Source: Hyphomonadaceae bacterium (GTDB lineage: Bacteria; Pseudomonadota; Alphaproteobacteria; Caulobacterales; Hyphomonadaceae). Taken from it: a DNA stretch of 64,000 nt. Numbering within the stretch: position 1 is the first letter of the stretch; every line of letters starts with the position of its first letter. A program made the position numbers and the translations under genes. Positions 3,171 to 41,810 of this stretch are shown one piece after another. The stretch covers positions 3,177,406 to 3,241,405 of the forward strand of contig OZ253505.1 of assembly GCA_965262255.1 (NCBI GenBank), read 5' to 3'. The notes beneath the pieces are model-generated. The model made no database searches, was not told the origin of the DNA, and saw nothing but the letters and a program-made list of their open reading frames with translations.

Positions 3171-3680
3171 ATGGCAACCTCACCCTCCCTCAGTTGGCAC
3201 GAAAGAGCGGTAGAACTCGAAATGTCATACGGCGGCCCAGTTGAAGCAGGTGTTTTAGCTCATCGATTTGAAAAATTCTTTACAAAACAACCAGATGCTG
3301 AGAAGCGCCATTTAGCTTCACTAAACTTCTACTGTTTCGTTCATTATTCGCGCAGGAAAAGCAGACTGAGCGTTAGAGACTTGGCTCAGAAATCAGGAGT
3401 TGAGTACAGTGAACTTATCTCTTTAGAACGTGACACCCAGTACAAACTCAAACGAGACTCAGTGGTTAAGCTTGCGAAATTTTTTGGTGTTGATGAAAAC
3501 GCGCTCGTAAATATGGCGCGCTTGGATGAACCGCAGTTCGATCCGACCTGGGAAGACGACCCAATTCAATTTCCTGATCATGTTGCGACAACAGTTGAAC
3601 TAGGCGAATTTGAACGGATAGCCGTCCTAGCACTTGAGGAAATTTTGGCGCAAATGGCTAGTATCGACTGTGCTGATTGA
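3171..3680 (+). CDS. XRE-family helix-turn-helix protein
   Basis: LSVRDLAQKSGVEYSELISLERDTQYKLKRDSVVKLAKFFGV is a classic HTH_3 pattern. The gene starts 10 nt after the GNAT stop, behind an aagga motif. Confidence 0.7.
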   Translation: MATSPSLSWHERAVELEMSYGGPVEAGVLAHRFEKFFTKQPDAEKRHLASLNFYCFVHYSRRKSRLSVRDLAQKSGVEYSELISLERDTQYKLKRDSVVKLAKFFGVDENALVNMARLDEPQFDPTWEDDPIQFPDHVATTVELGEFERIAVLALEEILAQMASIDCAD

Positions 3681-4005: not shown

Positions 4006-4383
4006 ATGCCTCAAAATCTCGCAGTTGGACTTCACCAACGCACAAAGGTTCTTACGAAAGCCGTGATTCGTTCGGCTGACTTGCTGGGGATACAGGAGCA
4101 TGATCTTGCACTAATTCTAAAACTTCCAGAACAGTGTATTCATCAAATGGCTAACAATCAGTACTGGCTGGAAGAGGGTTCGAAGCCCTTCAAAAATGCC
4201 GTTAAACTAGTGCGGCTATTCCGTTCTTTAGATTCTATCACGGGTGGAGATAGCGAAATTGCAAAAAATTGGCTACTTTGTCATAACATTGTTTTAGGCG
4301 GTCGCCCAATAGATAAAATTAAAACTGATTCAGGACTTGTAAATGGCATTACCTACTTGGATTCCCGACGCGCTCCGCTCTGA
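4006..4383 (+). CDS. Xre/DUF2384-type antitoxin (ParS/MbcA-like)
   Basis: The C-terminus IAKNWLLCHNIVLGGRPIDKIKTDSGLVNGITYLD matches the Wl..pn..LgG..P.d...t..G toxin-binding domain pattern. It sits immediately upstream of a RES gene. Confidence 0.8.
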   Translation: MPQNLAVGLHQRTKVLTKAVIRSADLLGIQEHDLALILKLPEQCIHQMANNQYWLEEGSKPFKNAVKLVRLFRSLDSITGGDSEIAKNWLLCHNIVLGGRPIDKIKTDSGLVNGITYLDSRRAPL

Positions 4384-5104
4384 ACAGGGTTCGCTGGAAA
4401 AAAAATTATGGCGGTGCGTTGAGGCTCAACACATCGTCTCTACAATGAAGATTGTCAGTTCGTTGCCAGAACAGTATTTGCTTGAAGATATACTTGAGGA
4501 AGATAAGCCAGAAGTACCAAACGAGTGCAATGGTCTACATTATCTGTTTATGACACCTTTTCGATACGGGTTATACAAAAACGGATCCCGTTTCCGGCGG
4601 GCTGGGTTCACTTCGGGGGTCTTTTATTCTTCTGAGAGTCCGTCCACTGCTTTGTTTGAGACAGCATTTCATTTGTTTTTGTTTTACGCAGAATCAGAGA
4701 ACCTTTCTTTTCCATCTCAACCAAGCGAACATACGATTTTTGATGTGCCTGTTAAATCGAAACATGCGATTGACCTGACAAGAACCCCATTTAATAATGT
4801 TGCACCACTATGGACACATCGTACAAACTACGAACCGTGCCAGCAACTGGAGGAAATTGCGCGTCAACAGGGCGTTCAGCTAATTCGTTATTCATCGGTG
4901 CGTGACCCGGATAGAAAGGCGAACGTTGCGATTTTGAACTGTAGCGCCTTCGCCTCGACAGCACCAAAGGAACAACAAACTTGGCAGCTTTCAATTAACA
5001 GTAAAGGTCTAGACGCTTTCTGTAGATTCAGAAACGAAAGAATCAGTGTCTCCTCAGTCGATTTAGTTGCTGATGAACGACTTAGGAAGTTGTGGACTTC
5101 TTGA
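4343..5104 (+). CDS. RES-domain toxin (NAD+-targeting family)
   Basis: The R, E and S landmarks are present: GSRFRRAG, FYSSESPSTALFE, LIRYSSVRDPDRKANVAILN. It overlaps the antitoxin 3' end by 41 nt if the start is at 4343. Confidence 0.85.
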   Translation: MALPTWIPDALRSEQGSLEKKLWRCVEAQHIVSTMKIVSSLPEQYLLEDILEEDKPEVPNECNGLHYLFMTPFRYGLYKNGSRFRRAGFTSGVFYSSESPSTALFETAFHLFLFYAESENLSFPSQPSEHTIFDVPVKSKHAIDLTRTPFNNVAPLWTHRTNYEPCQQLEEIARQQGVQLIRYSSVRDPDRKANVAILNCSAFASTAPKEQQTWQLSINSKGLDAFCRFRNERISVSSVDLVADERLRKLWTS

Positions 5105-5290: not shown

Positions 5291-6010
5291 ATGGCTGAAG
5301 ATCTTCATCAGAATCCGTCTACCCCAGATGGAACTCCCGATTTCTCTAATTTATCGCGGGGTTTCCAACACGAACATACTTCAGATACATCCAACAATCG
5401 GATTGCTGGTGAAGGGGAAGAGGCCGGGTTAGACCAAGTTGACGAATTCGAAACAGCGGCGAACAATACTCTCATTAATCGGCAAAGTCGCGTGGAGAGG
5501 GCAGAAGCGAGTTCTAAAGAGAGAATGGACAAACTAGAGAAGAGTTTGAAAGAAACTGTAAACGGACTAGTGGAGAGAATAGACAAGTCAGAGTCGGATT
5601 CTAAAGAGAGAATGAACAAACTAGAGAAGAGTTTGAAAGAAACTGTAAACGGACTAGTGGAGAGAAAAGACAAGTCGGAGTCGGATTCTAAAGAGAGAAC
5701 GAACAAACTAGAGAAGAGTTTGAAAGAAACTTTAGACGAACTAGTGGAGAAAATAGACAATTTTCAGGCAGAAAATAGAGAAAATTTTCAACTATTGGTG
5801 ACTGCCCAAAAAGAACTCAACCAAAAAATGGACACCTTAATTGAAAAAGTGATGGATAGGCTCGACGAGAATGAAAAAGCAACTGCAAAACTTCAATCTG
5901 AGGTAGCGACCTTGAAGCGAATCGATAGTTGGATTTTTAGAGTTTTGGCTATCTTGGTAACAACTGCTATCTTAGTTTATCTCTCATTTACGCTACCAAA
6001 ATTGTTCTAA
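5291..6010 (+). CDS. Coiled-coil, C-terminally membrane-anchored protein with 29-aa tandem repeats
   Basis: It contains three SKERMxKLEKSLKETVNGLVERxDKSESD units. The C-terminus is hydrophobic: RIDSWIFRVLAILVTTAILVYLSF. The paralog at 43179..43823 shares the LKRIDSWIF anchor. Confidence 0.7.
   Translation: MAEDLHQNPSTPDGTPDFSNLSRGFQHEHTSDTSNNRIAGEGEEAGLDQVDEFETAANNTLINRQSRVERAEASSKERMDKLEKSLKETVNGLVERIDKSESDSKERMNKLEKSLKETVNGLVERKDKSESDSKERTNKLEKSLKETLDELVEKIDNFQAENRENFQLLVTAQKELNQKMDTLIEKVMDRLDENEKATAKLQSEVATLKRIDSWIFRVLAILVTTAILVYLSFTLPKLF
5498..5760. repeat. 87-bp in-frame tandem repeat, about 3 copies
   Basis: tctaaagagagaa starts at 5513, 5600 and 5687, giving a period of 87. Confidence 0.9.
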
Positions 6011-6057: not shown

Positions 6058-6390
6058 TCAATCTAACTGTCGTAAATCATTGGGTGCGATTTCATGGAGA
6101 GTGCAAATCCTTAGAATAGTTTTGTCGATTAGCAATTGAATCTCGCTAAGATTTGCTCCCGTAGAGCAACGCTCAGCAACCAACAACTCCGCCAAATAAT
6201 GACAGAGCCAACGGCTTAGGACATTTCCTCGTGCGCTAATCTTCATTTTTTGAAAAATTCTTTCTCCAAGTGCCAAAGTTTCGTTCGGCGCCTTCAATCT
6301 CTCCAGATCCTCTGAGGAGCAAGATTCGCACGAATGTAACCTCATTTTCGCTTTTTGAACCAGATAAATGCCTTTGTTGCTGTCGCTCAT
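6058..6390 (-). CDS. Small conserved protein overlapping the 3' end of the giant STAND gene
   Basis: The ATGAGCGA start and the 155-nt out-of-frame overlap are both conserved in the paralogous locus (22231..22599). The non-overlapping part is conserved at protein level: RWLCHYLAELLVAER vs RWLCHYLSELLITER. Confidence 0.65.
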   Translation of the reverse strand: MSDSNKGIYLVQKAKMRLHSCESCSSEDLERLKAPNETLALGERIFQKMKISARGNVLSRWLCHYLAELLVAERCSTGANLSEIQLLIDKTILRICTLHEIAPNDLRQLD

Positions 6391-9300
6391 TTCGGGTTAC
6401 TCCTACCTCAGTTATCAAATCAAATTTTTCTATTTCTAAGAGTTTTGCAATATCTCTCCTACGAGCAAGCAGTCGATGCCCCGAAGAAACAACGCCCTCC
6501 ACAATTCTCAGATTACTGTCACTTTGTACTCGTTCGCCCCATGCCTCGTATATAAAACTTGGAAGTTTGTGTCCTTTTCTATACCATGCCAGATTTGGTG
6601 AGTAGGTGCGCGTAAGTTCCAGACTTCTCTGCGCAATTGTACCTGGCATTATGGCAATATTGCCAATGTCTTGGCAAAGTGAATCTTTAGAGTCTAAGCC
6701 TAAATTTCCGTCAGGTTGAACGAGCCAACTCTTCAATTCAAAGCCATCTTCTGTAATATCCGACCTACTCCCTTCCGGACCCAAGTAATAGTCAGACGTG
6801 TATTGAGCAGTTTGAAGAGCATTCACCAAAGAATGCGCTGTTTGCGGCGATACTAGTGATGAGAAAATCTGTACGACTTCTTGGTGATTTCGCCATTTTG
6901 TCTCAGTGCTAGCGTGAACAACTAAGTAGTCTGGGCGATCAGATGGCATCAGTTCTGCAATAAACTCCTCATCATCAATACTCGAAAACCAATTTGTAGA
7001 GAATGAGTTCGGACTGCACCAGTGTTTCAAATTGAGTGGCCTTAATCCAACCATATCGGAAAGCCAAACTGGTGGAAAACTAAGCATTCCGCAAGAAATT
7101 TGGTCGGCTAGTCCTTCGTCACCCTCATATCTTGGTTTTGACAATTTATGTGAAGAAAGCAGTTCCCCTACAGTACACCACATTGCGTGCCATTCTAGGT
7201 AGGTGCGATAGTGTTCAACTGTAGGTAAGTGACCGTGACTATTCGTTGTTCGTTCCGAATGATATTTTTTGAACCTTACCGAACGAAAATGCCTTGAGCC
7301 ATTGGACTCCTTGCCAATGTATCCCCATTTATCAATAATCCAGCGTTCTGCTATTCTTTGAAAATCGTTATTCGATAGCCCCTCAAATATTCTAGTCCAA
7401 GGTTCATACCAATAACGTAGTGTATCCAAGCCATCAAAATCAAACCTAGTTTGCTCTTTTTGTTTTTGTCCTCCGTTAAGTAATAGATCTATCGTAACTC
7501 TTACGTCTTCCTCCTCCAAGTCTACGTTATCAGCTCGTGCTAAAGGACTCTGATTTACTTTTTCTAAGTTACTAATTTCATCTTTTCCGAGCGATAAAAA
7601 TCCCGATGAATGAAGTTCTAATGCTGCGTCACGGGCATATGCCTTTATAAGAACATGAGGAAAATCATCACTTACAGCAATCTCAAATAGTTCCTGTCCC
7701 AAACTAGCGATTTCTTTCGGGGATTCTTCTGAAATCCTGCTCAGAGCGATTACTAACCAGAGGCGAGCAGAGATCCAGTAAAATGGTTCTTCAGGACTAC
7801 GAAACACAGGTTCTGACATACGACCCCACTGCCGCCATATACAGTCGATTAAATCACTCTCTCCTAATCTAGCCAAACGTCGAACTGCATGAGCCGCACG
7901 CCATCGGACACGCAAATCAATGTCACCGAGAAACGCGTAAATGAAGCGAGCGACTGTCTCGTTTGCAGAGGTGGGAATGGCATCCCTTACCTCCATTTCT
8001 CTATCATCTTTTCGGATGCTCGTTAGAAGTCTATCGACATACCATTCGAAAAGTTTTGCCGCTGAAGCGGGTTCTTGTTTAGAAGCGATTATTCCTGCTA
8101 TCGCCAACGTAACACGGGAACTCAATTTTTCGCCATTTCTTTGAATAACGTCTAGCAAAATTTCAACAGCTTGTTCGTTTGAGGCTTTCGACAGATTAAG
8201 AATTTCCGAAAGTCTCTTATCTACCCCGTGGAGAAAATTAAAATCAGTAGCGAAGTACAACGAAATTATTCTAGGCAGTTCATTTCTATACCACTCCAGC
8301 ACTGCGTCTTGCGCTTTCCATTTAGCGACTGTATCAGTGATCACGTTCATAATAGACTCGTCTGGACAATTTTCCTGCACCTCCATTAGAGCTTCAAGAT
8401 GATTTATACTGTCGCCGAAAGCAACTTTATTGGTTGCCGATTCTAGGACCATTTCCAGTGACACATTCTCTTTATTCTCACGGCAAATTCGAATGATAGC
8501 ATCGGCTCGGACTTTCAATCGCCGACCGCTTAATAGATCTTCGCGATCCCAATGATGGGAATCTAGCGATGCAAACTGCTTCTTGTGCAACTGCTGACCT
8601 ACGTCGTTATCATTTTTCGCCGCGGGAAGGCTTTTTTTGAACTCAAAGTACTGTGTTAATCGAGCATTAGAAATTCCCGTGCAGTATTTAGACACAAAGT
8701 CTTTTATGCGATCTGTACAGTCAATTCGATTAGATAGTAAGTCTAGACGAACCTCTTCAGCTATACCAACGCAAGAATCTTGCTCTTCTGTTATGTCAAT
8801 CATCTTTTCTACATCTTCTGGCTTTGTAGTCTCTGCTATAATCATAAGTGCATGGCCAGCTGAACAGGAAATTTGATTTGTTGAAGTAGCGATGTGTACA
8901 ATTCTCGCTAAGTTGTTTTCTAAACTGACAATTCCTTGGTCATGCCATTTCGCAATAGATGCTAACGCTATGTTCGCATCTAAGCGAGCAATTGATGAAA
9001 GAGCTTCTCGCCATGGGAAGTGATGAGCGTACTTGACCCGTCTATAGGCATTCTCAACGATTAGGGTCAGAGCCGTGGCAAATTTTGATCGATTTTCGCT
9101 CATGCTCGTTAAGCCGAAGCGGACGAGAATATCAAACAGTCGGATTACATCTGCGATTTCAGATGAAATATCTCCAGCAACGTCAATCGATTTGTTGAAG
9201 ATAATCTTACTCTCGTCGGAACTTATTGGTATTAATAGTTCTGCTAAAGACATCAAACATTGGCTTTTCTCATAGGCTCCTGTTCTATCTTTTTGCCAAA

Positions 9301-12300
9301 TTTGCGCTGCTTCGCGTACCTTCAGGTAGAAAGACCTATACAATTCTTTGTGAAGTAGGATCCTAGGAGCAATCCTTGTTAAGTTCAGTAACCATTGATT
9401 GCCGGACACAGTCCAAATTGCGGTCATTACGTCATTTTTTAGTCTTTGTTCTTTCAACAACACGGTTAAACTATATGCTGCTCGAGATCTTAACATCGCG
9501 AAGTCATGATCCAGATAGTTTTGCCACCACCCAGATTTAAGTTCTCGGCAACTCTCGTGAAGTAACTCAGTTACTTGATTTGACGGAACCTTACCTGCGA
9601 GTATTCGGGCTCTCGCAACATAAACCTGACCTATCACCGAAACTTGCTCTCGAAGTCTCCGATCGCGTTGCTTGACTTCATAGTTATGTTGATTCCGTCC
9701 ACCTTTTTGAGATTCAGGGCGGTCAATCAGAATTTTGGACAAATCAGTTTGTTTGTCCTCAAGACAATTCGAAAGTGTAAAACATCGGACAATTGCATCG
9801 ATTAGAGAATCATCGTGTTCCTTCACTTGGTCGATTCGGCGAATCTTTGGATCCAGAAATAGTTCCAAAACCTGATTAACAACTTTGTTTTCCTTGTCGG
9901 ATGCCGATAAAATCTCAACACCTGTTAGCAACGTGTCGAAGATATAAGACACAAGAGCATTGTTTTCAAATGTTCTGCTTAACACGGGAGATCTGATATT
10001 CAATCGTCGTAGTAGAATTTTGAGTCCGAGTGATAACCGGGCGTGGTCGATCTTACGTCCGGCCAAAGCAAGGGAAACAAGTACAAAAATTGACTTTGAA
10101 ACTGAAAGCGATTCCGCTAGCTGCTCCATTAACTCGAAACGACGCTCTTGTCCCAGTCTTTCTATAAGAAGCTTGGCCGAAAGAACTAAAGATCTAAGTG
10201 GACGAATACGGCGAAGTCTTGCAATGGTTGCCTTCGCGCCAGATTCAAGTAATTCAGTGTAGAGTAAGCAAGCCATGTCCGCAGCGGATAAAACCGGGTC
10301 GATCGAAGTATCAGTTTCATTTTCGTCTGTTTCGAGATCGTATATTCGACGACTGAGCCAAGATTCAAATCGCCTTCTAAAATCACGAACTCCTATGAAA
10401 TCTTCATTTGCAGCACACTCAGCCATCATGTGAATTAGCAGTGGGCCTTGATTTTCCGTCTGTTGAGGATCGCTCAGAATTAGTCGACTACCTGACTCTG
10501 GAGCATGTTTGGCCGTCAATTGGGGATTTTCCGTAAGAAGTGACTGTAATATTGCTTCATTCTTCATCGCCTCCGCCCCAAGGAGTACGAATCGGAGAGT
10601 TCTTTCAGATTTTCCTGCGTCGCGACAAACACCTATTGCTAACTTCAGGCGCTGTGTTCGAACCTCTTGTCTTATCACAAGTTCAGCAACGGCATGGGCA
10701 TCTGGTTCTGGATGTTTTTGGACTAACTTCAAAAGACGTTTATGTTTTTTGGCAAGCTTCAACATCGGTGCAACGTTTATTGCTGCGTATTCGTCGGTTT
10801 TGTGCCTAGTCAGGAAGCGGTCTGCAACAGATGTCAACATGTCATCTATAAGAGGATCAGCAAATTTTCTAACGTACGCTTCAATATCTTCGTCAGCAAA
10901 TGTAACAAAATCGCCTTTAGATTTTACTCCGGGGTCTAAATCTATACAAAAATCTTTAGCAGCTTCCTGATCGATTTCCAAAACCTCTGCAATCTCGCAA
11001 ATTGGAATAGGTCTCGGCAAAACCGCTATACAAGCACAGAACTTTTGCAGTTCTATCTTTATTCCCGCTTTTTTTCGTGCATCTTGGAAAATACCATCAA
11101 ATATCTGGTTCAGATCCTTACCCGAAGGTTTCAGTAGATCAATTCTCTTTTCTATCGGCAGGGTAGGGCGTTCTAGCGCATAACCTTGCATCCTTGGAAC
11201 GCCATCTGAAAGTTCGTGGAGCTCATTTATCCAACCCTGAGGAGCATCCCAGTATCCTCGGGCATTTGCCGCTGTCTCTTCTAGAACAAATTTCTCTAAT
11301 TCAATTTTCACATAATCGTCTGGTATTTTTAGTTGTTCCAATCTGCCGCTTCGCGCACTAACTATAAATCGAACATTATTGGGAAGAACTTCATAAGACA
11401 TAAAATCGTAAATAAAATTTCTTTCGACTGAGCCTCTTTCTCGCGCAGCATTCTCAGAGTTGTCAGCCGCATCTATAGCAATCAACAGTAACGCCTCGCT
11501 GCTTCTTAAAGAAATTAGTTTTGCGAATTTTTCGAGTCGATGTCGAAAAACTTTAGCGTAATCAGTATCAGCACGTGCTGATAACAACAATGGCATTCGC
11601 AAGCGAATCGCGATTTCGTTACACATCTGTACGAATGCATCCTGCGGTCGATGGCGTAGCGAACTAGCATCAAGATACGACCCTCCTCCGTAGCAATCGA
11701 AGATCACCATCTCAGATTCTTCTGGTAGACACTTCTCTAATTGCGCCAACGTTGTCGTTTTACCAATGCCGGCCGCGCCATGAAGGCAAATCTTCTGTTT
11801 TCCAGCCAGCAATTGTTTGGTAATGTTTTTGGTGGAACTTCGCTTGACACAAGAATCGCTACTCTTGATCTTCGACGGACAAGGGAGCAACGCTCGCAAA
11901 TCCGAAACTCCGAACTGAGCTAAAACCCTACCACGATCTATATAGTCGTTAGAGCTGTCCGATATCATCTGACGGCGAACCATTTCCCGAAGTCGGCGCG
12001 TTACTTCTGCGGATTCGATTTCAGTCCATTGGGCAACCTCGTCAAAAATTTTGCATTCAAACGCAAATCGTGATCCTGCCTCGCCTGATAAGTCAAGAAC
12101 CTTGGCAAATTCTTGAAACTCATCGGCGGAAAGACCGCTCGCCTCAAAAATCCTACGAAGATTATTATAGTCCTGACTTTGAGAATTACGTCTTTTAGCA
12201 TGTAGCCCTTGCCGCGCAGATTCTATCGCCGCCAACAAACCGTCACAAACAGGTTGATTCGTTATCAATGATACTCCTATGGAACTGAAATCTTTTTCTG

Positions 12301-12661
12301 GTCTTTCTGCTTTCAGTTGCAAGTACGCCGTTGCGAGTTTTGCGATCAGCGATTTCGAAGGTTTGCCGTTTTTACCTCGAGAAATTTCTGCGATCGTCCA
12401 TTTTCTAACTGTTTTTGCCCTCGAGTACTTTAATTGCTTAATTTCGACCCGGTCAGCGTCGGAATTTGTTGTCCCGCCAAAGTACAGCGCGCAATCGACT
12501 CCATGCCATTTGAATTTCTTGTTCGAGGAATTGGTTCCTTCAATCTTTATAGCATCTAGACTTGATTCGTGATCAAGAAGGCGCAAACATTCACGAGTGG
12601 CCCAAAGCTCGTGAAATTCGTGACCAGCATTTGAACTGCTTGCTCCAGTAAGCTCTATCAC
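6236..12661 (-). CDS. Giant STAND-type NTPase with N-terminal PD-(D/E)xK-like (DUF4297/Cap4-like) domain and long helical C-terminus (Avs-like)
   Basis: GTG start. The N-terminus reads GHEFHELWA...GVDCALYF...DRVEIKQLKYS. Walker A is LHGAAGIGKTT (about 11755..11790) and Walker B is LLLIAIDAADN (about 11463..11495). RFIVSAR follows. More than 1500 aa of helical repeats include the HEAT-like DLRVRWRAAHAVRRLARLGE. Confidence 0.8.
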   Translation of the reverse strand: MIELTGASSSNAGHEFHELWATRECLRLLDHESSLDAIKIEGTNSSNKKFKWHGVDCALYFGGTTNSDADRVEIKQLKYSRAKTVRKWTIAEISRGKNGKPSKSLIAKLATAYLQLKAERPEKDFSSIGVSLITNQPVCDGLLAAIESARQGLHAKRRNSQSQDYNNLRRIFEASGLSADEFQEFAKVLDLSGEAGSRFAFECKIFDEVAQWTEIESAEVTRRLREMVRRQMISDSSNDYIDRGRVLAQFGVSDLRALLPCPSKIKSSDSCVKRSSTKNITKQLLAGKQKICLHGAAGIGKTTTLAQLEKCLPEESEMVIFDCYGGGSYLDASSLRHRPQDAFVQMCNEIAIRLRMPLLLSARADTDYAKVFRHRLEKFAKLISLRSSEALLLIAIDAADNSENAARERGSVERNFIYDFMSYEVLPNNVRFIVSARSGRLEQLKIPDDYVKIELEKFVLEETAANARGYWDAPQGWINELHELSDGVPRMQGYALERPTLPIEKRIDLLKPSGKDLNQIFDGIFQDARKKAGIKIELQKFCACIAVLPRPIPICEIAEVLEIDQEAAKDFCIDLDPGVKSKGDFVTFADEDIEAYVRKFADPLIDDMLTSVADRFLTRHKTDEYAAINVAPMLKLAKKHKRLLKLVQKHPEPDAHAVAELVIRQEVRTQRLKLAIGVCRDAGKSERTLRFVLLGAEAMKNEAILQSLLTENPQLTAKHAPESGSRLILSDPQQTENQGPLLIHMMAECAANEDFIGVRDFRRRFESWLSRRIYDLETDENETDTSIDPVLSAADMACLLYTELLESGAKATIARLRRIRPLRSLVLSAKLLIERLGQERRFELMEQLAESLSVSKSIFVLVSLALAGRKIDHARLSLGLKILLRRLNIRSPVLSRTFENNALVSYIFDTLLTGVEILSASDKENKVVNQVLELFLDPKIRRIDQVKEHDDSLIDAIVRCFTLSNCLEDKQTDLSKILIDRPESQKGGRNQHNYEVKQRDRRLREQVSVIGQVYVARARILAGKVPSNQVTELLHESCRELKSGWWQNYLDHDFAMLRSRAAYSLTVLLKEQRLKNDVMTAIWTVSGNQWLLNLTRIAPRILLHKELYRSFYLKVREAAQIWQKDRTGAYEKSQCLMSLAELLIPISSDESKIIFNKSIDVAGDISSEIADVIRLFDILVRFGLTSMSENRSKFATALTLIVENAYRRVKYAHHFPWREALSSIARLDANIALASIAKWHDQGIVSLENNLARIVHIATSTNQISCSAGHALMIIAETTKPEDVEKMIDITEEQDSCVGIAEEVRLDLLSNRIDCTDRIKDFVSKYCTGISNARLTQYFEFKKSLPAAKNDNDVGQQLHKKQFASLDSHHWDREDLLSGRRLKVRADAIIRICRENKENVSLEMVLESATNKVAFGDSINHLEALMEVQENCPDESIMNVITDTVAKWKAQDAVLEWYRNELPRIISLYFATDFNFLHGVDKRLSEILNLSKASNEQAVEILLDVIQRNGEKLSSRVTLAIAGIIASKQEPASAAKLFEWYVDRLLTSIRKDDREMEVRDAIPTSANETVARFIYAFLGDIDLRVRWRAAHAVRRLARLGESDLIDCIWRQWGRMSEPVFRSPEEPFYWISARLWLVIALSRISEESPKEIASLGQELFEIAVSDDFPHVLIKAYARDAALELHSSGFLSLGKDEISNLEKVNQSPLARADNVDLEEEDVRVTIDLLLNGGQKQKEQTRFDFDGLDTLRYWYEPWTRIFEGLSNNDFQRIAERWIIDKWGYIGKESNGSRHFRSVRFKKYHSERTTNSHGHLPTVEHYRTYLEWHAMWCTVGELLSSHKLSKPRYEGDEGLADQISCGMLSFPPVWLSDMVGLRPLNLKHWCSPNSFSTNWFSSIDDEEFIAELMPSDRPDYLVVHASTETKWRNHQEVVQIFSSLVSPQTAHSLVNALQTAQYTSDYYLGPEGSRSDITEDGFELKSWLVQPDGNLGLDSKDSLCQDIGNIAIMPGTIAQRSLELTRTYSPNLAWYRKGHKLPSFIYEAWGERVQSDSNLRIVEGVVSSGHRLLARRRDIAKLLEIEKFDLITEVGVTRNERQQQRHLSGSKSENEVTFVRILLLRGSGEIEGAERNFGTWRKNFSKNED

Positions 12662-13306
12662 TTAGTTTTTACTTTCATTGCTGTTTCCGCAGGCGATCAC
12701 AAAAGAGTTGCTCGTGCGACCTTGCGTATATGTCGGTATAACTCGCATGAATTTGGTTAGTTCTTTCCGACGCCCTTTAGAAGCACGAAAATTCATCTTT
12801 TTACATTCAAACTAGAAACTACGCAACTAAGTGGGTCCAATACACATTGACTCACTTCCGTATACACCATCGGTTTTAAAGTCGAAGTCTCTAAAAGTTT
12901 AACACTGCCATATTAGACTTCCGTCAGAACATATACCTTTTCCGAACGACGAAATATAATGCTAAAACTATTTATAGAAGTGTACAACAGGCACAATTCA
13001 AACCGAGATAAGAACGGATAGTCCGCAGACGAAAGAAAAAACTTAGCACCCCATATTCTTCAAACAAACAGGCCTTCCTAGCAGAAACTGTTGCCAATCA
13101 CCAGAGGAGTATGATGATTTGCAGAAAAATCTAATCTCAAGCGGTTTTTAGCTCCAAATCAACGTATCATCTGAGAAAATCATAGACTTTCAAGAATTCT
13201 CGGGCAACTATTCTTTTCGCGTCTACCTCAGTTTGACTAAATTTACTTTTGGACAATCTCTAAAGTCAGAGAGGCTAGTTTCGGGTTTGGCTCGCTATTT
13301 ATGAGT

Positions 13307-14464
13307 TCATTTCGCAAAAAAGTCGAGAATCTTTTGAATTAAGCCTGTCCGTATGTCAACTTTCTTCGTTCTGAATAACTCAGCACATTCTCTATTGCCA
13401 TGGCTAAGTTGCCATTCCCATTCATCTTGGTCTTCATTATAGCCAATCTCGTAAGCAATTTCATATGCAGTTTTACCGTCGACGTTTCTAAGGTTAAGAT
13501 TAACATTACTGTCTAAATCGACCAATTCTCTACATGTGTCAGTCACTTCTCTAATTCGTTGTGCGGCAGACAACTCAATTTTACCATTTGAATCAAATTT
13601 TTCAGACGAGTCAAAAGAAGGATGGAGAGCATAATTTCCGGCTGCAATGTGAAGTGGAGAGACGTTGCTATATTCATCTGGCATATCTATCAAATCTGGC
13701 ATTTGTCCGTGTCCGAAATATTCAGATTCGACGAGCATAGGCAACGAAACTGAAAGATTTGGATACATAAAGCGTTCTGAAAGTTTTTTACCGGTTCGGA
13801 CATTCACAGTAGCCCCGTAATAGCCGAGAATTCTGATCGCATGCGGGTTGGCTGTTTCTGCTGCGAGGTGCATTGGCGTGACATTTCCTCTGTTCTTGAC
13901 ATTAACTTTAGCTCCATAGTCAATCAGAAGCCTCATCAAACCTGTCTCTTCTAGTTCAGTCGCAAGATGAAGTGGAGTATTTCCTACTGAGTCACGGGCA
14001 TTTGGATTCGCGCCATTCGCGAGTAAAAACTTGACGTTACTTATGACTACTTCTCTGTGTTGATACAAATTTGCAGTCAGCATTGCCTCAAATAATGGGG
14101 TAGCTCCAAAAATGTTCTTTGCGTCGACCAAGCTTCCTTCATTGAGCAGATATTCCATTATAGGTATTGCTCCATGGTATTGCGATACCTGGTGTAACGC
14201 AGTTCTCCCAAATTTTTCGTCTTTCTCATTCGGTTCTCTGTTTTCGTACCCGACGCACTTCGTAACCCAATCTAATGGCCGAGAGTCTAGAAATGACCAC
14301 CCATTCGATCCCCAATCTATAAAGTTTTGAAACTTTAGCATCCATTTGTCAGAACATTCGTAGTCACTGTATTCGTCAATCCAAGAGTCTCCCTTAGCTT
14401 GGAGAACGCTCAGAGTAAGTACCGTTAGAAGCGTATAGATTGCAAAAGTTACCGTAATTCTCAT
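13307..14464 (-). CDS. Secreted ankyrin-repeat protein
   Basis: The N-terminal signal-like segment is MRITVTFAIYTLLTVLTLSVLQAKG. Ankyrin units: GRTALH, GATPLFEA, GNTPLHLA, NVTPMHLAA. Confidence 0.8.
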   Translation of the reverse strand: MRITVTFAIYTLLTVLTLSVLQAKGDSWIDEYSDYECSDKWMLKFQNFIDWGSNGWSFLDSRPLDWVTKCVGYENREPNEKDEKFGRTALHQVSQYHGAIPIMEYLLNEGSLVDAKNIFGATPLFEAMLTANLYQHREVVISNVKFLLANGANPNARDSVGNTPLHLATELEETGLMRLLIDYGAKVNVKNRGNVTPMHLAAETANPHAIRILGYYGATVNVRTGKKLSERFMYPNLSVSLPMLVESEYFGHGQMPDLIDMPDEYSNVSPLHIAAGNYALHPSFDSSEKFDSNGKIELSAAQRIREVTDTCRELVDLDSNVNLNLRNVDGKTAYEIAYEIGYNEDQDEWEWQLSHGNRECAELFRTKKVDIRTGLIQKILDFFAK

Positions 14465-17729: not shown

Positions 17730-19230
17730 AAAATTAGGGAATTACTTACTTGTTGACACATAATGATGGAAATTAGTCCTTGTTAAAGTGTTGGTGACGG
17801 GGTAAACTCTCGTACAAAAATGGAGTTGCACCGTGACCACCCAAAAACTTTCGGTCATACAAATCGCCCGTAAATTCCCGGACAACGAAGTTGCGGAGAA
17901 TTGGTTTATCAAACATCGCTGGAAGAACGGCGTGGAATGCACTCATTGCAATAGCAAGCGAGTGACTGAGCGTCGGAAGGCAGGCAAGCGAGCGTTTCGA
18001 TGTAAGGATTGTCGCAAGGATTTCAGTTCTAAGACGGGTTCGTTAATGCACGATTCGAAGATTGGTTTTCGTGAATGGGCTATCGCGATCTTCCTGATGG
18101 CGATTAATATCAAGGGAACATCTAGCACCAAGTTAGCCCACGATCTAGGTATATCTCAGAAGTCGGCTTGGTTTATGGCTATGCGTATTCGTGAGGCTTA
18201 CCAAGGTGATGATCCGATATTGCTAGAGACTGCTGTAGAAGTTGATGAAGCCTACTTTGGCGGAGTTGAAAAGAATAAACACGAAGACAAGAAGCTGAAT
18301 AAAGGCCGCGGTGCAGTTGGCAAGATGGCGGTTGTAGGTATCAAGGAACGTGAAACAGGCCGTTTAGTTGCGAAACCCGTCTCTGATACGTCCAAAGAGA
18401 CACTGCAAGGCTTCATTCAAGATAATGTCAAAGAAGGTACTCATGTCTATACAGACGAGTCCAAGTCCTACGACGGACTAGAAGATAACGGCTACGAACA
18501 CAGCACGGTCAAGCATTCGGCAGGAGAATGGGTGAAAAAGCAAGCGCACACGAATGGCATTGAATCGTTCTGGGCGTTACTCCGAAGATCGTATCATGGG
18601 ACTCACCACTGGTTGTCGGCTAAGCACCTAGCCTCTTACGTCAATGAGTTCGCTACCCGCTCTAATCTGAGGGGTGAAAACACAATGAACTTCATGGGTC
18701 ATATAGTTCGTGAGATGTCGGGGAAGCGGTTGTCGTGGAAGGAGTTGGTAGCACGAGGACCTGTTCCAGCAGGGTAAGATCACTTATAGGTATTGACGAC
18801 ACACTGGAAAATGTTGCGAACACACTATGCCAGTCGGTGAAGGTAATCGGCAGGTATACGAGACAAAAATCTAGAAAACAACCTACTTGTCGACATCAAC
18901 GGAGAGTAACTCCCTTATGCAAGTAGTAATCGTTGAATAAAGTATTTTGTAGAATTCTAGGGAGTTACGATTTTGCTACAGCAGAATCAGCGGATTAGTT
19001 TGACACTAATCACTTACTAGCAACTAAGCACACTGACAAAATCTCATCGCAGAACCGAATTCGTTTGCGACGAAGCGTTGAATTGGCTGTTTTATTGAAT
19101 GCCGCGTACGTTCTCGAGAACTCTTCCATTTCCGAATTCTTCATAGACTCTTATCTCTTGGTCCAAAATCAAGTATCCAGCTCGTGGAAGCTACCACTAT
19201 GTGTCAACAAGTAAGTAATTCCCCAAAATT
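17730..19230 (+). mobile_element. IS1595-family IS (ISXO2-like) with a roughly 450-bp non-coding tail
   Basis: The terminal inverted repeats are aaaattagggaattacttacttgttgacac (17730) and gtgtcaacaagtaagtaattccccaaaatt (19201..19230). Confidence 0.8.
17833..18777 (+). CDS. IS1595-family transposase
   Basis: The N-terminal zinc-ribbon is CTHCNS...FRCKDCRKDFS. EVDEAYFGG and HTNGIESFW blocks are present. Confidence 0.85.
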   Translation: MTTQKLSVIQIARKFPDNEVAENWFIKHRWKNGVECTHCNSKRVTERRKAGKRAFRCKDCRKDFSSKTGSLMHDSKIGFREWAIAIFLMAINIKGTSSTKLAHDLGISQKSAWFMAMRIREAYQGDDPILLETAVEVDEAYFGGVEKNKHEDKKLNKGRGAVGKMAVVGIKERETGRLVAKPVSDTSKETLQGFIQDNVKEGTHVYTDESKSYDGLEDNGYEHSTVKHSAGEWVKKQAHTNGIESFWALLRRSYHGTHHWLSAKHLASYVNEFATRSNLRGENTMNFMGHIVREMSGKRLSWKELVARGPVPAG

Positions 19231-19449: not shown

Positions 19450-20835
19450 ATGAATGCGCGCTTTGATACAGCGAATATGACTTCTAACAGGAAGTACAGG
19501 TACGAGGGCCTGCGCCTTCGTTGGTCAAGAAAGTATCTTGGATATAGCCGCGCACAGGTTTCGTCGGCACTCAGCATTGAACAGTCACAGCTCGCTGCGA
19601 TAGAAATTGGGATTCGTAAGGCAAACAATGAATTTCTTGCAAAATTCTCACGCCTTTATGGTCGACCAGTAGATTGGCTCGCGAGCAACGCGAAGCTTGA
19701 CAGCGTTGAAACAGAGAATCCAAGTAGCTATAATCCTTGGCAGTTTTCCGAGGAAGACCGCTTAGAATTTCGCAGTTTCAGGCAAGTTATTGAAAGCACC
19801 TCTTGGAAGGTAAAATTCAAAGAAAAGGTAGAGGCGTTAAGTAGCTTATTTGATCGCAGTGCCTGCGTAGAAGAAGTACATGAATCACTTAACACCTTTG
19901 AAACAGCTTTAAGATCGGGGTACGTCGATATTTTCGAGGCAATATCTGGTGTAGGCGTAGCGACAATTTTTCGACCATTAGGATTCTTGGGTGCTTTGTT
20001 TGGAACGGATAAGTGTTCCGGCTTAATGTTGTCAGTTTCGAAGTCTTTAAACGAATTGCGCCTAGCTGCTGCTAGCGCCCTTGCTAGGCTTACGGCTAAT
20101 AACCTGCACGAAGAGCTGACTCTTACCAAACTCTGGTATTCGCTGTCTCCAGAAAATGAGTTACGAGAAACAGACGAGAAAAACTTCAGAATATCGTTAA
20201 ACTTATTGCTACCGAACTTCCTTCTTGTCGAAACTCAGAAAAGATTCAATTGGTCTAATCGTGATATGGCTTCTCCTATCAATATGTATCAAGCGTCGTT
20301 GCGACTTGGTGCTAGTTATAGCGCAACGACAATCGCATATTGCCAATTAGGGGTGATATCAGAATTGGAGGCGAAAAAACTGTTGAACGAAAGCTTAGTC
20401 AATATCAAGCAAGCTATTTTGCAGAATTATTTGCCGGATAACATAAAAGATATTAACGTATGGCTGCTTACTCGGAGTGAAGAAGGATCGGTTATTCGGG
20501 CGAATCCTAATGATGTTTTTGTTATAAAACTTAAAGAAAATCGTGCAGCGGGCTATCGTTGGGATTTTTCTAAACTTGAAAAAGAAGGGTTTTCGATAAT
20601 TAATGATGAAAGCTTGAATTTAGACGCGCATCGAGTGGGAGCGCTGAGCCTTCGTTCTGTTCTGGCGAATCCTGCAACACTTCGAGAAGGCGACTTAGTT
20701 TTGGAGGAGTCATGTCCCTGGGAGAGAGTCCCCACGGAACCCAATGAGATTCTAGTCCCATATCGAAGATTACCTCAGTTTAAGATTGGTCTTTACGGTT
20801 CTGAATCACTTCATAACCAAAGTTTGGCCGACTAG
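19450..20835 (+). CDS. XRE-HTH / degenerate ImmA-IrrE-like middle region / C-terminal chagasin-type (I42) cysteine-peptidase inhibitor fusion
   Basis: HTH: LGYSRAQVSSALSIEQSQLAAIEIG. Middle region: QASLRLGASYSATTIAYCQLGVISE, with no HExxH seen. The C-terminus carries the three chagasin loops: LKENRAAGYRW (NPxTGYxW-like), HRVGALS (GxGG-like) and SCPWE (RPW-like). Confidence 0.65.
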   Translation: MNARFDTANMTSNRKYRYEGLRLRWSRKYLGYSRAQVSSALSIEQSQLAAIEIGIRKANNEFLAKFSRLYGRPVDWLASNAKLDSVETENPSSYNPWQFSEEDRLEFRSFRQVIESTSWKVKFKEKVEALSSLFDRSACVEEVHESLNTFETALRSGYVDIFEAISGVGVATIFRPLGFLGALFGTDKCSGLMLSVSKSLNELRLAAASALARLTANNLHEELTLTKLWYSLSPENELRETDEKNFRISLNLLLPNFLLVETQKRFNWSNRDMASPINMYQASLRLGASYSATTIAYCQLGVISELEAKKLLNESLVNIKQAILQNYLPDNIKDINVWLLTRSEEGSVIRANPNDVFVIKLKENRAAGYRWDFSKLEKEGFSIINDESLNLDAHRVGALSLRSVLANPATLREGDLVLEESCPWERVPTEPNEILVPYRRLPQFKIGLYGSESLHNQSLAD

Positions 20836-20836
20836 A

Positions 20837-21484
20837 ATGGACGTAGTTGTAGATTTCAGTGACCGATTCGGTGAAATAGGCGATCAGGGGAGGCGCTTGA
20901 CGTGCCTTGTATTTGCTTCAACAGCAGCACATGAGTATTGTCAGAATTCTGATCAACCTCTTTGCCTAGAATGGTTGTATTTTCACGCTATAAAGATCGG
21001 TGGAAGTATGCTTGGAGATGGCACACGGGTCGAGGATATTTCAGTCGCACTGCAGCACCATGGTCAGCCATATGAAAGGGTTTGGCCATACGACAAAGCT
21101 ACAAAATTTCTGAATTGGATGCCGCCCTTTTATCCAGGACACCGCTACTTTGCTGAAGGGGCATACAATGATTTCGATCTCAAGCACATCCTGACTACAC
21201 TGGATCGTAGAGTTCCTATAGTAATTTCGTTTTGGAACGACAGAGAATTTGAAGATCCAAAAACTGTTGGTGAGTATTCTTTAATCGAGCAGCGGCGCGA
21301 AAAGTCTTCGTCTAGTTTGCATGCGGTTTTGGCGGTTGGATATGGTTATAAGAACCAAACTTTATACGTAAAGGTGCGAAATTCCTGGAGTAGGAATTGG
21401 GGAGTAGAAGGTTATGGTTGGGTAAGCGAGCATTTTCTGGAGCTTAGTGGTGTTAAAACTTTTCAGTTATGCGCGGTGAACTAG
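20837..21484 (+). CDS. Papain-like (family C1) cysteine peptidase without signal peptide or prodomain
   Basis: GDQGRRLTCLVFAS supplies the Gln and the catalytic Cys (codon 20903). LHAVLAVGYGY supplies the His (codon 20320+1000, i.e. 21320). RNSWSRNWGVEGYGW supplies the Asn/Trp block. The ATG lies 1 nt after the upstream stop. The track ORF starts at 20786. Confidence 0.75.
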   Translation: MDVVVDFSDRFGEIGDQGRRLTCLVFASTAAHEYCQNSDQPLCLEWLYFHAIKIGGSMLGDGTRVEDISVALQHHGQPYERVWPYDKATKFLNWMPPFYPGHRYFAEGAYNDFDLKHILTTLDRRVPIVISFWNDREFEDPKTVGEYSLIEQRREKSSSSLHAVLAVGYGYKNQTLYVKVRNSWSRNWGVEGYGWVSEHFLELSGVKTFQLCAVN

Positions 21485-21499: not shown

Positions 21500-22385
21500 T
21501 TTAGATGTTTTGCCCGAAAATCTTGTTAGTTATCTTCTTTCACATCTGCCGGTCTGGCTTTCTGATTTCGTTGGTGTCAGGCCACTATAGGTTGCACGTT
21601 GGTATCAACCGAATCACGTGCCATCGGACTAGTTCTCACGAATATCCGATGAGGAATTTTTAAAAGAGTTGCTACCTAATGACCGGACAGATTATATCGT
21701 TGTCGATGCTCGTTTCGAGACTAGTTGGATTCGTTACAAAGAAACTATCGAGATTTCTTCAGCATTGGTATCTCCTGATACAGCCCACACGCTAGTGAAC
21801 GCCATACAAACTGTAGAGTTTTCTAGCGACTATTACCTTTGTCCGGAAGCAAGCCCAAGCGAGATATCGGAAGTTGGTTTTGAGTTAAAAGGTTGGCTAA
21901 AGTCTCCGGCAGATTGTTCAGGCTTTGACGATAAAGATCCGTTTTGTAACGAAGTACGGCCGATTGTTATGAGGCCCGGTGAATTCGTTACTAATAGTCT
22001 CGGTCTTACAGTAGATTGCATCTGAAGCCTGTTTTGGTATAGAAACGAACGGGCAGACCCAAGCTTCATATATGAAACTTGGGGAATGAAGAAGCTCGAT
22101 TACTCTAGAGTCAATAATGGTAATGGAGTTGTTTCATGAAGTCATCGATTGCTCGTGCGTAAGGAAGATTTGGAATTTTTTCTAGCGGCAGAGGTTTTTG
22201 ACTTGATCACCAGGGTAGGAGTAAAGCGTTATGAGCGAAAAAATCGACAAAGTTTACATGGTTCGGAAGGCGAACTTCGAGTTACTTTCGACAGAGTCAT
22301 GCTACTCAGAGGAAACAGTGAAATTGAAGGCACCAAACGAAAGTTTGGCTCTTGGCGAGAGAATCATTCGACTGCTAAAGATTAG
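21500..22385 (+). pseudogene. 3' remnant of a second giant STAND gene (paralog of 6236..12661)
   Basis: LPVWLSDFVGVRPL*..SRISDEEFLKELLPNDRTDYIVVDA...LVSPDTAHTLVNAIQT... aligns to the last 290 or so aa of the giant protein. It has in-frame stops at about 21584, 21632 and 22023, plus a frame change. Confidence 0.8.
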
Positions 22386-22599
22386 TTCATATAACGATAC
22401 TTTCGGTCGCTGGCTTTGTCATTATCTTTCCGAACTGTTGATCACTGAACGAAACTCAAGCGGATCGGAACGTGTAGAGATATGTTCTAAGATTGACGAA
22501 ATCGTTTCAAGAATCAAGGGAGAATGCGATAATCGTCAGAATACTGCAGAGATAACAGAAAGTTTGCAGAGGGTTATAAGATCTGCTATATCTCGTTAG
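22231..22599 (+). CDS. Paralog of the small STAND-overlapping protein (intact)
   Basis: MSEKIDKVYMVRKANFELLSTESC..LKAPNESLALGERI..RWLCHYLSELLITER aligns to 6058..6390. Confidence 0.6.
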   Translation: MSEKIDKVYMVRKANFELLSTESCYSEETVKLKAPNESLALGERIIRLLKISSYNDTFGRWLCHYLSELLITERNSSGSERVEICSKIDEIVSRIKGECDNRQNTAEITESLQRVIRSAISR

Positions 22600-22758: not shown

Positions 22759-23568
22759 ATGCAACAGTCCCAGTTTAAAATAATCCTTCGTTACTTGTTA
22801 TTAATACTTTGGCTTCAATTTCTTATTGTCGAAGTTACTGCGCAGCATTTGCATAAGGAGTACGAAGATTTCATTTGTGACTACGATTGGATGTACACTC
22901 AGCCTGACGTTTATAATTCGGGACGTTCCCATTATGACTGGTTCAAGAGATGCATTGAATTCGAGAACCAAGATGTTAACGATCAAAGTGCAGCTCATGG
23001 TTCAACAGCTCTGCACACGGCAGCTGGTCTAGGTGATGTGGCGGCTATTGGATATTTGATCGAGCTGGGAGCAGACATAGAAGTATTAGACTTCGTTGGG
23101 GGATACACACCTTTACACGAGGCAGTATCTTCGGGTAAATCTGGCGCGGTAAGGATGCTTCTTGATCAGGGTGCGAATGTTAATGCAAAGACATATTCAA
23201 AAAGGTATAAATTTGCCAATGGAAAAAGTGTCTTGCATATTTCTGTGTTTAAATTAGATGTTATAGTCACACGGATTCTGCTTAGGAGTGGGGCTCGGGT
23301 GAACTCATTAGATCAAAATAAATACACGCCGCTAAATTATCTTTTGGAATCCGCTAGTTGGAGTCTCGCGGAAAGAGACAAACTGGGCCAACTGGAAAAG
23401 GAGGCACGCTTTTCAGAGATTTGTAAGTTGTTGGTCAACGCAGGAGCGAGTACTGTAAAGCCGAATGAACAGGGTAGGTCTCCAGAAGATATTGCTATGG
23501 AACTCCTCGAAGACGAGGAAGCTTCCAGTGAGGTGGAGGTTTGCGCAAGAATTGTTTTGTCCAGGTAA
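22759..23568 (+). CDS. Secreted ankyrin-repeat protein (paralog of 13307..14464)
   Basis: A signal-like N-terminus is present. Ankyrin units: GSTALHTAAGLGD, YTPLHEAVSSG, KYTPLNYLL. The pre-repeat segment DYDWMY...WFKRCIEFENQD aligns to the other ankyrin protein. Confidence 0.8.
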   Translation: MQQSQFKIILRYLLLILWLQFLIVEVTAQHLHKEYEDFICDYDWMYTQPDVYNSGRSHYDWFKRCIEFENQDVNDQSAAHGSTALHTAAGLGDVAAIGYLIELGADIEVLDFVGGYTPLHEAVSSGKSGAVRMLLDQGANVNAKTYSKRYKFANGKSVLHISVFKLDVIVTRILLRSGARVNSLDQNKYTPLNYLLESASWSLAERDKLGQLEKEARFSEICKLLVNAGASTVKPNEQGRSPEDIAMELLEDEEASSEVEVCARIVLSR

Positions 23569-23794
23569 ATGCAATCATGCCGTAAACGAGAAAACATCTA
23601 CAGGAAGAAGGCCAAAAACCGATCGACACTCTAGAACTAACCTGTTGCATAGTCTTAGGTAGTTCAGCAGAAATTTGGTGCAGAGACCTTGCCTTCGTGT
23701 TAATAGAGGGAAGTCAGTAGATTCTAATGAAGGACAGGTTAACAAATTTTCCGCTTGTCAATTGTATAAGTTTAAAGTAAAAATTCTTAGTGAT

Positions 23795-26644: not shown

Positions 26645-26837
26645 AAGAGAGCAAGTTAAACTCAAGAAGGATACCACGATCGAGAAATGGGTTCCCGGAG
26701 TGAATTCATTGGGTATTTATGGTCGCTGGAAATTTGTTCAGTTTGAAGACATACTCGAAATAAAAGAAAATTTCTTTGCGTTCGTTGAACGTTTAAAAGA
26801 AAACTATAGTTCAAAGAAGGAGGCTAAGAATGGCTAG
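26586..26837 (+). other. res: Displaced C-terminal segment of Res (PD-ExK nuclease motif) in the +1 frame
   Basis: DPLNLIVEIKGYKRE...GRWKFVQF is the usual Res C-terminal ExK nuclease block. It is reached in frame only if the tract is G10. Confidence 0.8.
26591..26601. repeat. G11 homopolymer inside res
   Basis: Counted directly: gat + 11 g + tag. Confidence 0.95.
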
Positions 26838-40073: not shown

Positions 40074-41810
40074 TCAGTTATCTTCTAAACGAGATTTTCC
40101 TGTTAGATAATGAGTTTTACTTCGATAGATTTTCAGATCACTGTCGTTTTTGGCATTGGTAACCGGAGCAAACCGGTTCGTTTTGTCACCAATTATCATG
40201 TTTGAATTGGTTTGTAGCGCTTTCTGTCGTTGTTCTATGGAATCGGTGTTTTGCTGGACAGTTTTGCGATGATTCTTCGTAATGTCGCCAATAGAGGAAC
40301 CATTATCACTGATCGGATCATTTAGATATTGATCTTTACGGTTATTCAAATTGGAGATTTTTGACGTATTGAAGCTAGCGATCTGTTCGATGTCTTCCTG
40401 ACTTTTGACTATGGTTGTTGGAAGATTAGAAGGTTTTTGCCAGTTGTCCAAGGTCGGTTGTCCTAAAAGTTGGTTTGCTTGTTCGCGAATAAAGTTTTGT
40501 GCTTGGTGTTCTACCCACAATCGATCAGCTTTATCTCCAGATGTCCATCTTCGGCTAGCTTCGGTATAGCCGACCGTACCGCCATGGTCATTTTCTTGGT
40601 TGGACATGTAATCCAAAAACGCATTATCCCAGTTTGCCACAAACTGACTTCCACTATGTTCAACTCTTGACGAAAGATCTCGTGCCGCGTTTGCTCGAGC
40701 GTGGTATTTTTCAATGTCCTCGCTAGCGTTTTGGGCTTCAGAATAGTTTGCCATAAATGATTCTTTCCATTCAGTTTCGCTACCAGCAGAATTTGTTTTG
40801 GAATTCCTCAAGAGTGTTCCAATAACATTGCTATTCCCCTCATTGCTCGAATCACTGATTACGGCATCGCGAGCCGCTTCTATGATTTCGGACTCTCTGG
40901 TTTCATTGCCAGCGGAACCGCGAATCCCAATTTCTGCCCTTCCTACACCAGCTAAAGGAAGTCCAAGTTCTTTCCTTGCACTTAATCCTGCATAGGCTTC
41001 AACCGCTAATTTTCGATCACGAGAATCCGTAAAACGTTCCGCAAATCGGTTTGCCGACGTAACTATTCGGTTGACACTCTCGGAGGCTTCCGTTGATGAG
41101 TGTATTCCTGTGAGCTCCTGAACTCCTCGACCTTGACTGACTTCCCAAGTTAAATCTGCAACATTCTGAGAAATTGCGGAATAAGCCATACTTGACCTGT
41201 TTGCGGCAGCCTCGCGTTCTTCCTGAGACCGACTGGCCTCTGATTGAAGGCTGGCTGATAATCCACTTTGATAATCGATATGCGTTGCTCCGCGAGACAC
41301 TGCTCCAGTGCCATCGTATACGCGTTGCCCAGCAGTGGTTGATTTAGTTCTTCCACCTTCCACTGTATTCCAAGAGCCTTCTCCAACATCTAAGAATCCA
41401 CTTGTCACTTGCCGATTTCCCTCCAAGGATGAAAATCGGTGAGTGTTAAATCCCGTGTTACCCAGCGAAATGTTTCCGGTAGCCATTTCTCTCGCCGTGG
41501 ACTGGGCAGCAGACTGCGCCGGGTGGAGAAAGCTCTGACTTAGACTTGCAAAAGCTGTCGCACCTTGGCCAAGTTTTGCTGCCATGAATGGAATCATCAA
41601 AGTCAGATATCCCGCGATCATCGAAATATCAGCGTGAACTGCTTCAATGCTTCTTTGAGTCACTAGTGTTATCGCTTCTTCCGAAGCGGGCGTGTAACTT
41701 GCTCCTAGGCTTCTCAGCTCGGCAGCCCCGAGCATTATTCTATGGAGTATCTGTAAAGTCCCACACTCTTGGGCGCGAAATGATATACTACCATTATACA
41801 GCAATTCCAT
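40074..41810 (-). pseudogene. TraG-like conjugative mating-pair protein fragment (tentative), 5'-truncated by IS481
   Basis: The sequence is rich in S, G, N, A and Q, with ATGNISLGNTGFN-type motifs reminiscent of the region after the F-type TraG N-terminal domain. The first 11 or so codons (MELLYNGSISF) are encoded by the IS481 left end. Confidence 0.4.

Follow-up and report, generated by a model that had tools for sequence, protein, structure and literature searches.

A probable, divergent AVAST type 3 locus whose short avs3b gene appears to begin inside avs3a

We asked what is encoded by a giant open reading frame (ORF) and by a small ORF that begins inside its 3′ end, in a 64,000-nt stretch of a Hyphomonadaceae bacterium contig (OZ253505.1). 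This whole stretch is referred to as the window, and its positions serve as coordinates throughout. An ORF scan with translations formed the base of the analysis and confirmed the arrangement described in the original prediction: an ORF of 2141 amino acids (aa) and one of 110 aa that overlaps it by 155 nt out of frame. Are these a novel antiviral protein of exceptional size with a new small gene, or a known pair in divergent form? Judged from the sequences, the locus is a complete, divergent AVAST type 3 (Avs3) anti-phage system with both avs3a and avs3b, to which we assign a probability of roughly 0.85. The system already has a name; the locus adds a distant Avs3 lineage and opens no new class. 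Modestly new are the family-wide extent of the apparent dual-coding segment at the avs3a/avs3b junction and a clade of short Avs3b proteins.

The larger gene and its parts, with domains placed by alignment to SeAvs3 of Salmonella enterica (PDB 8DGC), are listed here.

6236..12661, minus strand: avs3a, 2141 aa with a GTG start (ORF scan)
11864..12637, minus strand: Cap4/DUF4297-type PD-(D/E)xK nuclease domain, aa 9-266
11270..11791, minus strand: STAND P-loop NTPase core, aa 291-464
11756-11779, minus strand: Walker A, GAAGIGKT, aa 295-302, aligned to SeAvs3 ADAGVGKS
11459-11491, minus strand: Walker B, LLLIAIDAADN, aa 391-401, aligned to SeAvs3 LCIIIDAADN
6239..11269, minus strand: C-terminal helical sensor region, aa ~465-2141

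The giant ORF matched the Avs3a profiles of both PADLOC (PDLC02167; E = 1.1e-211, aa 9-2122 on profile positions 9-2087 of 2090) and NCBIfam (NF041816; E = 8.5e-220, 733 bits, profile positions 4-2080 of 2083). It also aligned with SeAvs3 (E = 2.1e-137, aa 9-2129 on 9-2085), with which it is collinear throughout, sharing the Cap4-type nuclease motifs, Walker A and B and the helical sensor. The two proteins are distant (462 bits over ~2100 residues), and the genome of the window has a G+C content of ~42%. The original prediction had proposed a very large, Avs-like protein. Its effector-STAND-sensor architecture stood, "Avs-like" gave way to the named Avs3a/Avs3b pair, and the size turned out to be typical of the family (2092 aa for SeAvs3; profiles of 2083-2090 positions). 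An unusually large novel Avs was therefore rejected, as 2141 aa is ordinary for Avs3, and by its sequence the giant protein is a divergent but ordinary Avs3a of AVAST type 3. The nearest relative found was a 2146-aa metagenomic protein with 62% identity over its full length. The sole available start of avs3a is a GTG immediately 3′ of an in-frame TAA (12661-12680, minus strand), and the TGA of a six-codon mini-ORF with an ATG start (MKVKTK) overlaps this GTG.

All motifs quoted in the original prediction were present in the translation (GHEFHELW at 13-20, DRVEIKQLK at 70-78, the two Walker motifs, and RFIVSAR), and both the N-terminal nuclease and the STAND NTPase that it had proposed were borne out by alignment. 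Searched alone, aa 1-267 had SeAvs3 aa 9-257, within its Cap4 domain, as the sole match (E = 1.6e-12), with the motif pairs GHEFHELWA/GDQFHYLWA, VDCALY/IDIAEY, KQLKYS/MQLKHS and ITNQPV/VTNRPV (window/SeAvs3). The only nuclease family matched in Pfam was Cap4_nuclease (PF14130), below threshold (E = 0.0076, 16.9 bits; cut-off 26.2), and a match to the PADLOC model SAVED_PDDEXK was marginal (E = 3e-4). The nuclease motif had originally been placed at E73-I-K75; the D and QxK of SeAvs3 align instead with D56 and Q76-L-K78, making D56 and Q76-x-K78 the candidate catalytic residues. The NTPase region gave weak, sub-threshold matches to NACHT, AAA_16, nSTAND_NTPase5 and NPHP3_N in Pfam. The sensor region is homologous to that of SeAvs3, in an alignment that reaches SeAvs3 residue 2085, and the last 600 aa of Avs3a have homologs in 110 genome loci.

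Characterized Avs3 proteins recognize the phage terminase, as seen in a cryo-electron microscopy complex, and act as phage-activated non-specific DNA endonucleases (doi:10.1101/2024.01.31.578182); in SeAvs3, Cap4 forms a tetramer (doi:10.64898/2026.01.04.697583). By homology to SeAvs3, the C-terminal helical sensor of the window protein would bind a conserved phage protein; for characterized Avs3, this protein is the large terminase subunit. ATP-dependent oligomerization into a tetramer via the STAND NTPase would follow; the Cap4-type nuclease domains would thereby be brought together, DNA would be degraded indiscriminately and infection aborted. CBASS Cap4, SeAvs7 and DUF4297-HerA have an effector of this fold family, a PD-(D/E)xK nuclease that oligomerization activates, and differ in the activating module (a cyclic-nucleotide SAVED domain, another sensor, or HerA).

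The small ORF and its candidate starts are as follows, with Shine-Dalgarno abbreviated as SD.

6058..6390, minus strand: avs3b, short form, 110 aa when started at the ATG at 6390 (ORF scan)
6236..6390, minus strand: putative dual-coding segment, comprising the last 51 avs3a codons and stop and the first ~52 avs3b codons (+1 frame)
6400..6409, minus strand: SD-like sequence GAGGTAGGAG, read from the sequence
6295..6297, minus strand: alternative avs3b start TTG (Leu32), overlap 62 nt; the equivalent is used by gene callers
6244..6246, minus strand: alternative avs3b start ATG (Met49), overlap 11 nt, read from the sequence

The 110-aa ORF matched the Avs3b profiles of PADLOC (PDLC02168; E = 5.1e-07, aa 38-106 on positions 9-77 of 238) and NCBIfam (NF041817; E = 5.2e-05, 23 bits, aa 41-99 on positions 1-59 of 211), and an iterated jackhmmer search connected it to the Avs3b family with an E-value of 4e-24. 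Both profiles are matched in their N-terminal portion, which identifies the ORF as the known AVAST type 3 partner and not a new gene. It adjoins avs3a directly downstream on the same strand, which is the two-gene arrangement of AVAST type 3. Known Avs3b proteins, such as WP_136027732.1 from Klebsiella variicola plasmid pKPN692_2, occupy the same site downstream of avs3a in the same +1 frame, and they share an LxLG...RW(M/L)xH(H/Y)LAEL core with the window protein. The family comprises 1923 representative clusters at E ≤ 1e-3. We did not find "Avs3b" by name in the searchable literature. Lengths in the clade of the window are short: 110 aa for the window protein, 122 for a second copy in the window, and 141 and 134 for the two nearest relatives.

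AlphaFold predicted the window Avs3b to be all-helical (predicted local distance difference test score, pLDDT, of 71.5), with a disordered, basic and Ser-rich N-terminus followed by a three-helix module (helices 35-48, 57-75 and 79-98). A full-length Avs3b from Marinomonas was likewise predicted to be all-helical (pLDDT 83). Compared with the 250-aa Avs3b P0165, the window copy lacks the long C-terminal helices of the P0165 model. No domain was found in Avs3b by Pfam search, and Foldseek searches of the PDB with the short window model and the full-length model returned no significant neighbor (best E = 0.9). Facing avs3b is a convergent 239-aa ORF (5291-6010, plus strand), its end 47 nt away from the avs3b stop. 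Within this ORF, 5512-5760 is an 87-nt tandem repeat (2.9 copies, 94% match); the ORF has no Pfam family and shows a weak ZorA coiled-coil match (E = 2e-7).

Where does avs3b begin? In the window, avs3a and avs3b share positions 6236-6390 (155 nt), with avs3b in the +1 frame of avs3a. The octamer ATGAGCGA stands at the avs3b start (6390, minus strand) and recurs at 22231 (plus strand), and an AGGAG lies 9 nt before the ATG at 6390, built from the avs3a codons for E-V-G-V. The closest relative found, the metagenomic locus L001/L002 (ENA ERZ23497109 scaffold_245), encodes the 2146-aa Avs3a and a short Avs3b. As in the window, its avs3b ATG lies 155 nt inside avs3a with an SD 9 nt upstream. Unlike the window copy, its 141-aa Avs3b retains the W and R of the ILKxW..R motif. 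Its neighbors, RVT_1-like and helix-turn-helix (HTH) genes, differ from those of the window.

We compared 80 genome loci that have homologs of the Avs3a C-terminus, together with three metagenomic and two plasmid loci. As a null model, the Avs3a protein was held fixed and synonymous codons were redrawn from each locus's own codon usage. An Avs3b homolog was found in the +1 frame in ~78 of 83 loci, in line with the original expectation that homologs would conserve the small overlapping ORF, and in these loci the open +1 frame reached back 134-233 nt from the avs3a stop, compared with only ~4-120 nt for the +2 frame in most loci. An ATG or GTG lay 110-165 nt inside avs3a in 77 of 82 loci, and such a far-upstream start stood behind an SD 4-mer or longer in 48 of 82, typically GGAGG, AGGA or GGAG and mostly at a spacing of 9-10 nt. 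All 76 usable loci had a +1 frame open for at least 110 nt (null 41.0 ± 3.7), and 75 of the 76 combined the open frame with an ATG or GTG at 110-165 nt (null 30.5 ± 3.9). Results held in a deduplicated set of 54 loci (<70% identical): the last 110 nt were free of +1 stops in 54/54 (null 28.5 ± 3.1), an ATG or GTG was present at 110-165 nt in 53/54 (null 40.7 ± 2.9), and a start with an SD 4-mer was present in 34/54 (null 12.0 ± 2.8). A chance ORF was rejected on the basis of the +1 Avs3b homologs and of this excess of open frames, starts and SD sequences over the null. An enterobacterial avs3a/avs3b junction, used as a blastn query against E. coli genomes, gave no match.

Sequence conservation pointed the same way. 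Among pairs sharing the Avs3a residue, synonymous codon identity was ~0.25-0.43 upstream of the last 50 avs3a codons; over those 50 codons, taken ten at a time, it was 0.49, 0.59, 0.44, 0.70 and 0.70. Conservation of the +1 amino acids, in 5-codon windows from codon -50 to the avs3a end, exceeded the null with z-scores of 3.6, 3.2, 5.5, 9.7 and 21.3, followed by 5.1, 12.9, 32.7, 26.2 and 19.1; upstream of the -50 window, z-scores were between -1.5 and 2.1. The onset of the excess thus coincides with the proposed avs3b start codon. The long overlap looks real and family-wide, with avs3b apparently starting ~130-160 nt inside avs3a. In the window, translation of avs3b most likely starts at the ATG at 6390, behind an SD made from conserved avs3a E-V-x-V codons. 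We consider this start probable, and we are much more confident that the two genes overlap by at least 60 nt.

Several observations weigh against the Avs3 reading or parts of it. Avs3a scores 733 bits, well under the curated NCBIfam equivalog cut-off of 2800 bits; this cut-off is tuned to close equivalogs, so the score points to a remote member of the family rather than to another architecture. In such a distant member the ligand specificity is extrapolated. Avs3b, at 23 bits against an equivalog cut-off of 200, matches over less than the full length of its profile. No SD-like sequence was evident upstream of the avs3a GTG when its start context was read. The remaining points concern the position of the avs3b start and the state of the gene. 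The start could be internal, at the TTG at 6297 or the ATG at 6246, with the 155-nt overlap an artifact of taking the longest ORF. The conserved upstream sequence would then serve initiation (as SD, standby site or unstructured mRNA) and not coding. We regard this as unlikely; the following speaks for it. The closest homologs are called from the TTG equivalent: P0001 and P0002 begin with MKAPNETLALG, where the DNA codon is TTG in two metagenomic relatives (L001 and L003). In most database Avs3b proteins, only 4-14 aa precede the LxLG motif. AlphaFold predicts disorder for the first ~25 residues of the long Avs3b, and their identity among close relatives is only 26-58%. Conservation of the +2 frame is also raised in the overlap, so part of the signal is at the nucleotide level and not frame-specific. 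Stop depletion at +1 codons -50 to -31 (five observed against ~8 expected) is uninformative. Profile coverage, for PADLOC and NCBIfam alike, sets in only near residues 30-41 of the long ORF. This point is already upstream of Met49, however, and no SD precedes the ATG at 6246, both of which count against that start. Against an internal start in general stand the enrichment of far-upstream ATG or GTG codons, with and without SD, in the deduplicated set, and the onset of excess +1 conservation exactly at the far-upstream codon. A basic [ML][TI][RK]K motif is also kept in the +1 frame where Avs3a is variable. Gene callers may account for the short calls: Prodigal limits the overlap between same-strand genes to ~60 nt, and the starts that were called would follow from this limit.

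A different concern is that avs3b may be a decaying remnant here, leaving a system that, if functional, consists of Avs3a as a single gene; this is compatible with the Avs3 assignment, and we consider it doubtful but worth weighing. The window Avs3b has 110 aa against a family median of 253 aa with the far-upstream start. C and H replace the nearly invariant W96 and R99; both residues, which belong to the ILKxW..R motif, are lost in both window copies. The short length and the lost residues suggest that the gene may be decaying. No remnant of the C-terminal half was detectable downstream, where the convergent gene has its end 47 nt past the avs3b stop, and the second avs3b copy adjoins an avs3a pseudogene. 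Yet four loci of the clade (the window, its paralog, L001 and L003) have each preserved an intact 110-141-aa ORF that uses the same start, and the N-terminal module folds confidently in the AlphaFold model. Residues 53-95, outside the overlap, are 47-60% identical across the clade, about as conserved as the Avs3a C-terminus (49-60%). This speaks for purifying selection acting on the N-terminal helical module. Alternatively, or in addition, an Avs3a-Avs3b fusion could arise if ribosomes underwent programmed frameshifting shortly before the avs3a stop. The long conserved stop-free +1 frame across the avs3a 3′ end would suit this, as would a database protein (P0189, 369 aa) with 124 residues N-terminal to its Avs3b match. 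Frameshifting needs neither a start codon nor an SD, whereas the loci show strong enrichment of both at a single position, and just a few codons separate the beginning of the open +1 frame from the far-upstream start; on these grounds we think it highly improbable.

Returning to a far-upstream start, we lean slightly towards a joint reading. In it, the first ~45-50 Avs3b residues are dual-coded across the family, with a ribosome-binding site built from the conserved avs3a E-V-E-(I/V)-T-R-R codons; public gene calls and profiles are systematically truncated at the N-terminus, synthesis of the two proteins is coupled, and the clade of the window retains the N-terminal module only. Initiation inside avs3a might, speculatively, tie Avs3b synthesis to avs3a translation, and Avs3b might, equally speculatively, be an accessory or regulatory subunit of Avs3a. 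If the joint reading is true, the three-helix N-terminal module would be the functional core of that subunit. Avs3b is a near-universal neighbor of Avs3a (~1900 clusters), and a 5′ end that appears to be dual-coded with the conserved Avs3a C-terminal tail, together with a ~100-aa module that may stand alone, offers concrete constructs for work on its function.

A dual-coded 5′ end would also account for inconsistent annotation of avs3b starts. On K. variicola pKPN692_2, PGAP names avs3a and avs3b with an overlap of 107 nt; the overlap is annotated as 41 nt on a Rhizobium plasmid, and the metagenomic relatives have 62 and 47 nt. In the Avs3b profiles of PADLOC and NCBIfam, the first ~30-40 residues are probably missing. 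Two sequences depart from the common arrangement: in locus L054 (4001-9545), Avs3a homology stops early and is followed by a 988-aa ORF in the +2 frame, and P0189 carries the N-terminal extension mentioned above. Both could be fusions, frameshifts or assembly errors.

Remains of a second Avs3 locus also lie in the window.

21510..22385, plus strand: avs3a pseudogene fragment, last ~290 codons (tblastn and translation)
22231..22599, plus strand: second short avs3b, intact ORF of 122 aa, 52% identical to the 110-aa ORF

The second avs3b has the ATGAGCGA start, a 155-nt overlap with the Avs3a-like frame and an AGGAG 9 nt upstream, so the recurrence of start and overlap noted in the original prediction stood. 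The paralogous locus itself fared less well: its avs3a part is 49% identical to the window Avs3a, has four in-frame stops and begins abruptly after a papain-like peptidase ORF. An intact paralogous Avs3 system at 21510-22599 was rejected on these grounds. The 122-aa ORF is intact; the sequence is too short for significant evidence of selection. Directly upstream of the relic (19450-21484, plus strand), the gene of a 461-aa HTH protein that carries an I42 domain (chagasin-type peptidase inhibitor) is followed by an overlapping 232-aa ORF in which just the C-terminal portion of a papain-family C1 peptidase is present; the two may form a protease/inhibitor pair. Ankyrin-repeat proteins lie upstream of the intact Avs3 locus (13307-14464, minus strand) and downstream of the relic (22759-23568, plus strand). 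They are homologous beyond the repeats (27% identity, E = 3e-18) and match the PADLOC candidate-defense model PDC-M72A (E = 4e-17 and 6e-13); L001, the nearest Avs3 relative, has no ankyrin-repeat neighbor.

The window as a whole is a dense defense and mobile island, and no tRNA genes were found in its 64 kb. Look-ups for identical sequences returned no record for the 110-aa ORF, the giant protein or the type III methyltransferase, megablast with positions 1-25000 matched no plasmid, and tblastn with a transposase yielded no useful taxonomic hint. Its other features are listed below.

81-971: transposase DDE_3
3171-3680: HTH gene
4343-5104: RES toxin
17833-18777: transposase IS1595
23675-29736: type III restriction-modification pair
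35521-37800: PifA-like KAP NTPase (E = 9e-114)
40074-41810: TraG_N protein
47642-48622: TIR protein
54704-56098: transposase IS1380-like
56489-57976: N6/N4 methylase-HNH fusion
59859-61283: type I methyltransferase

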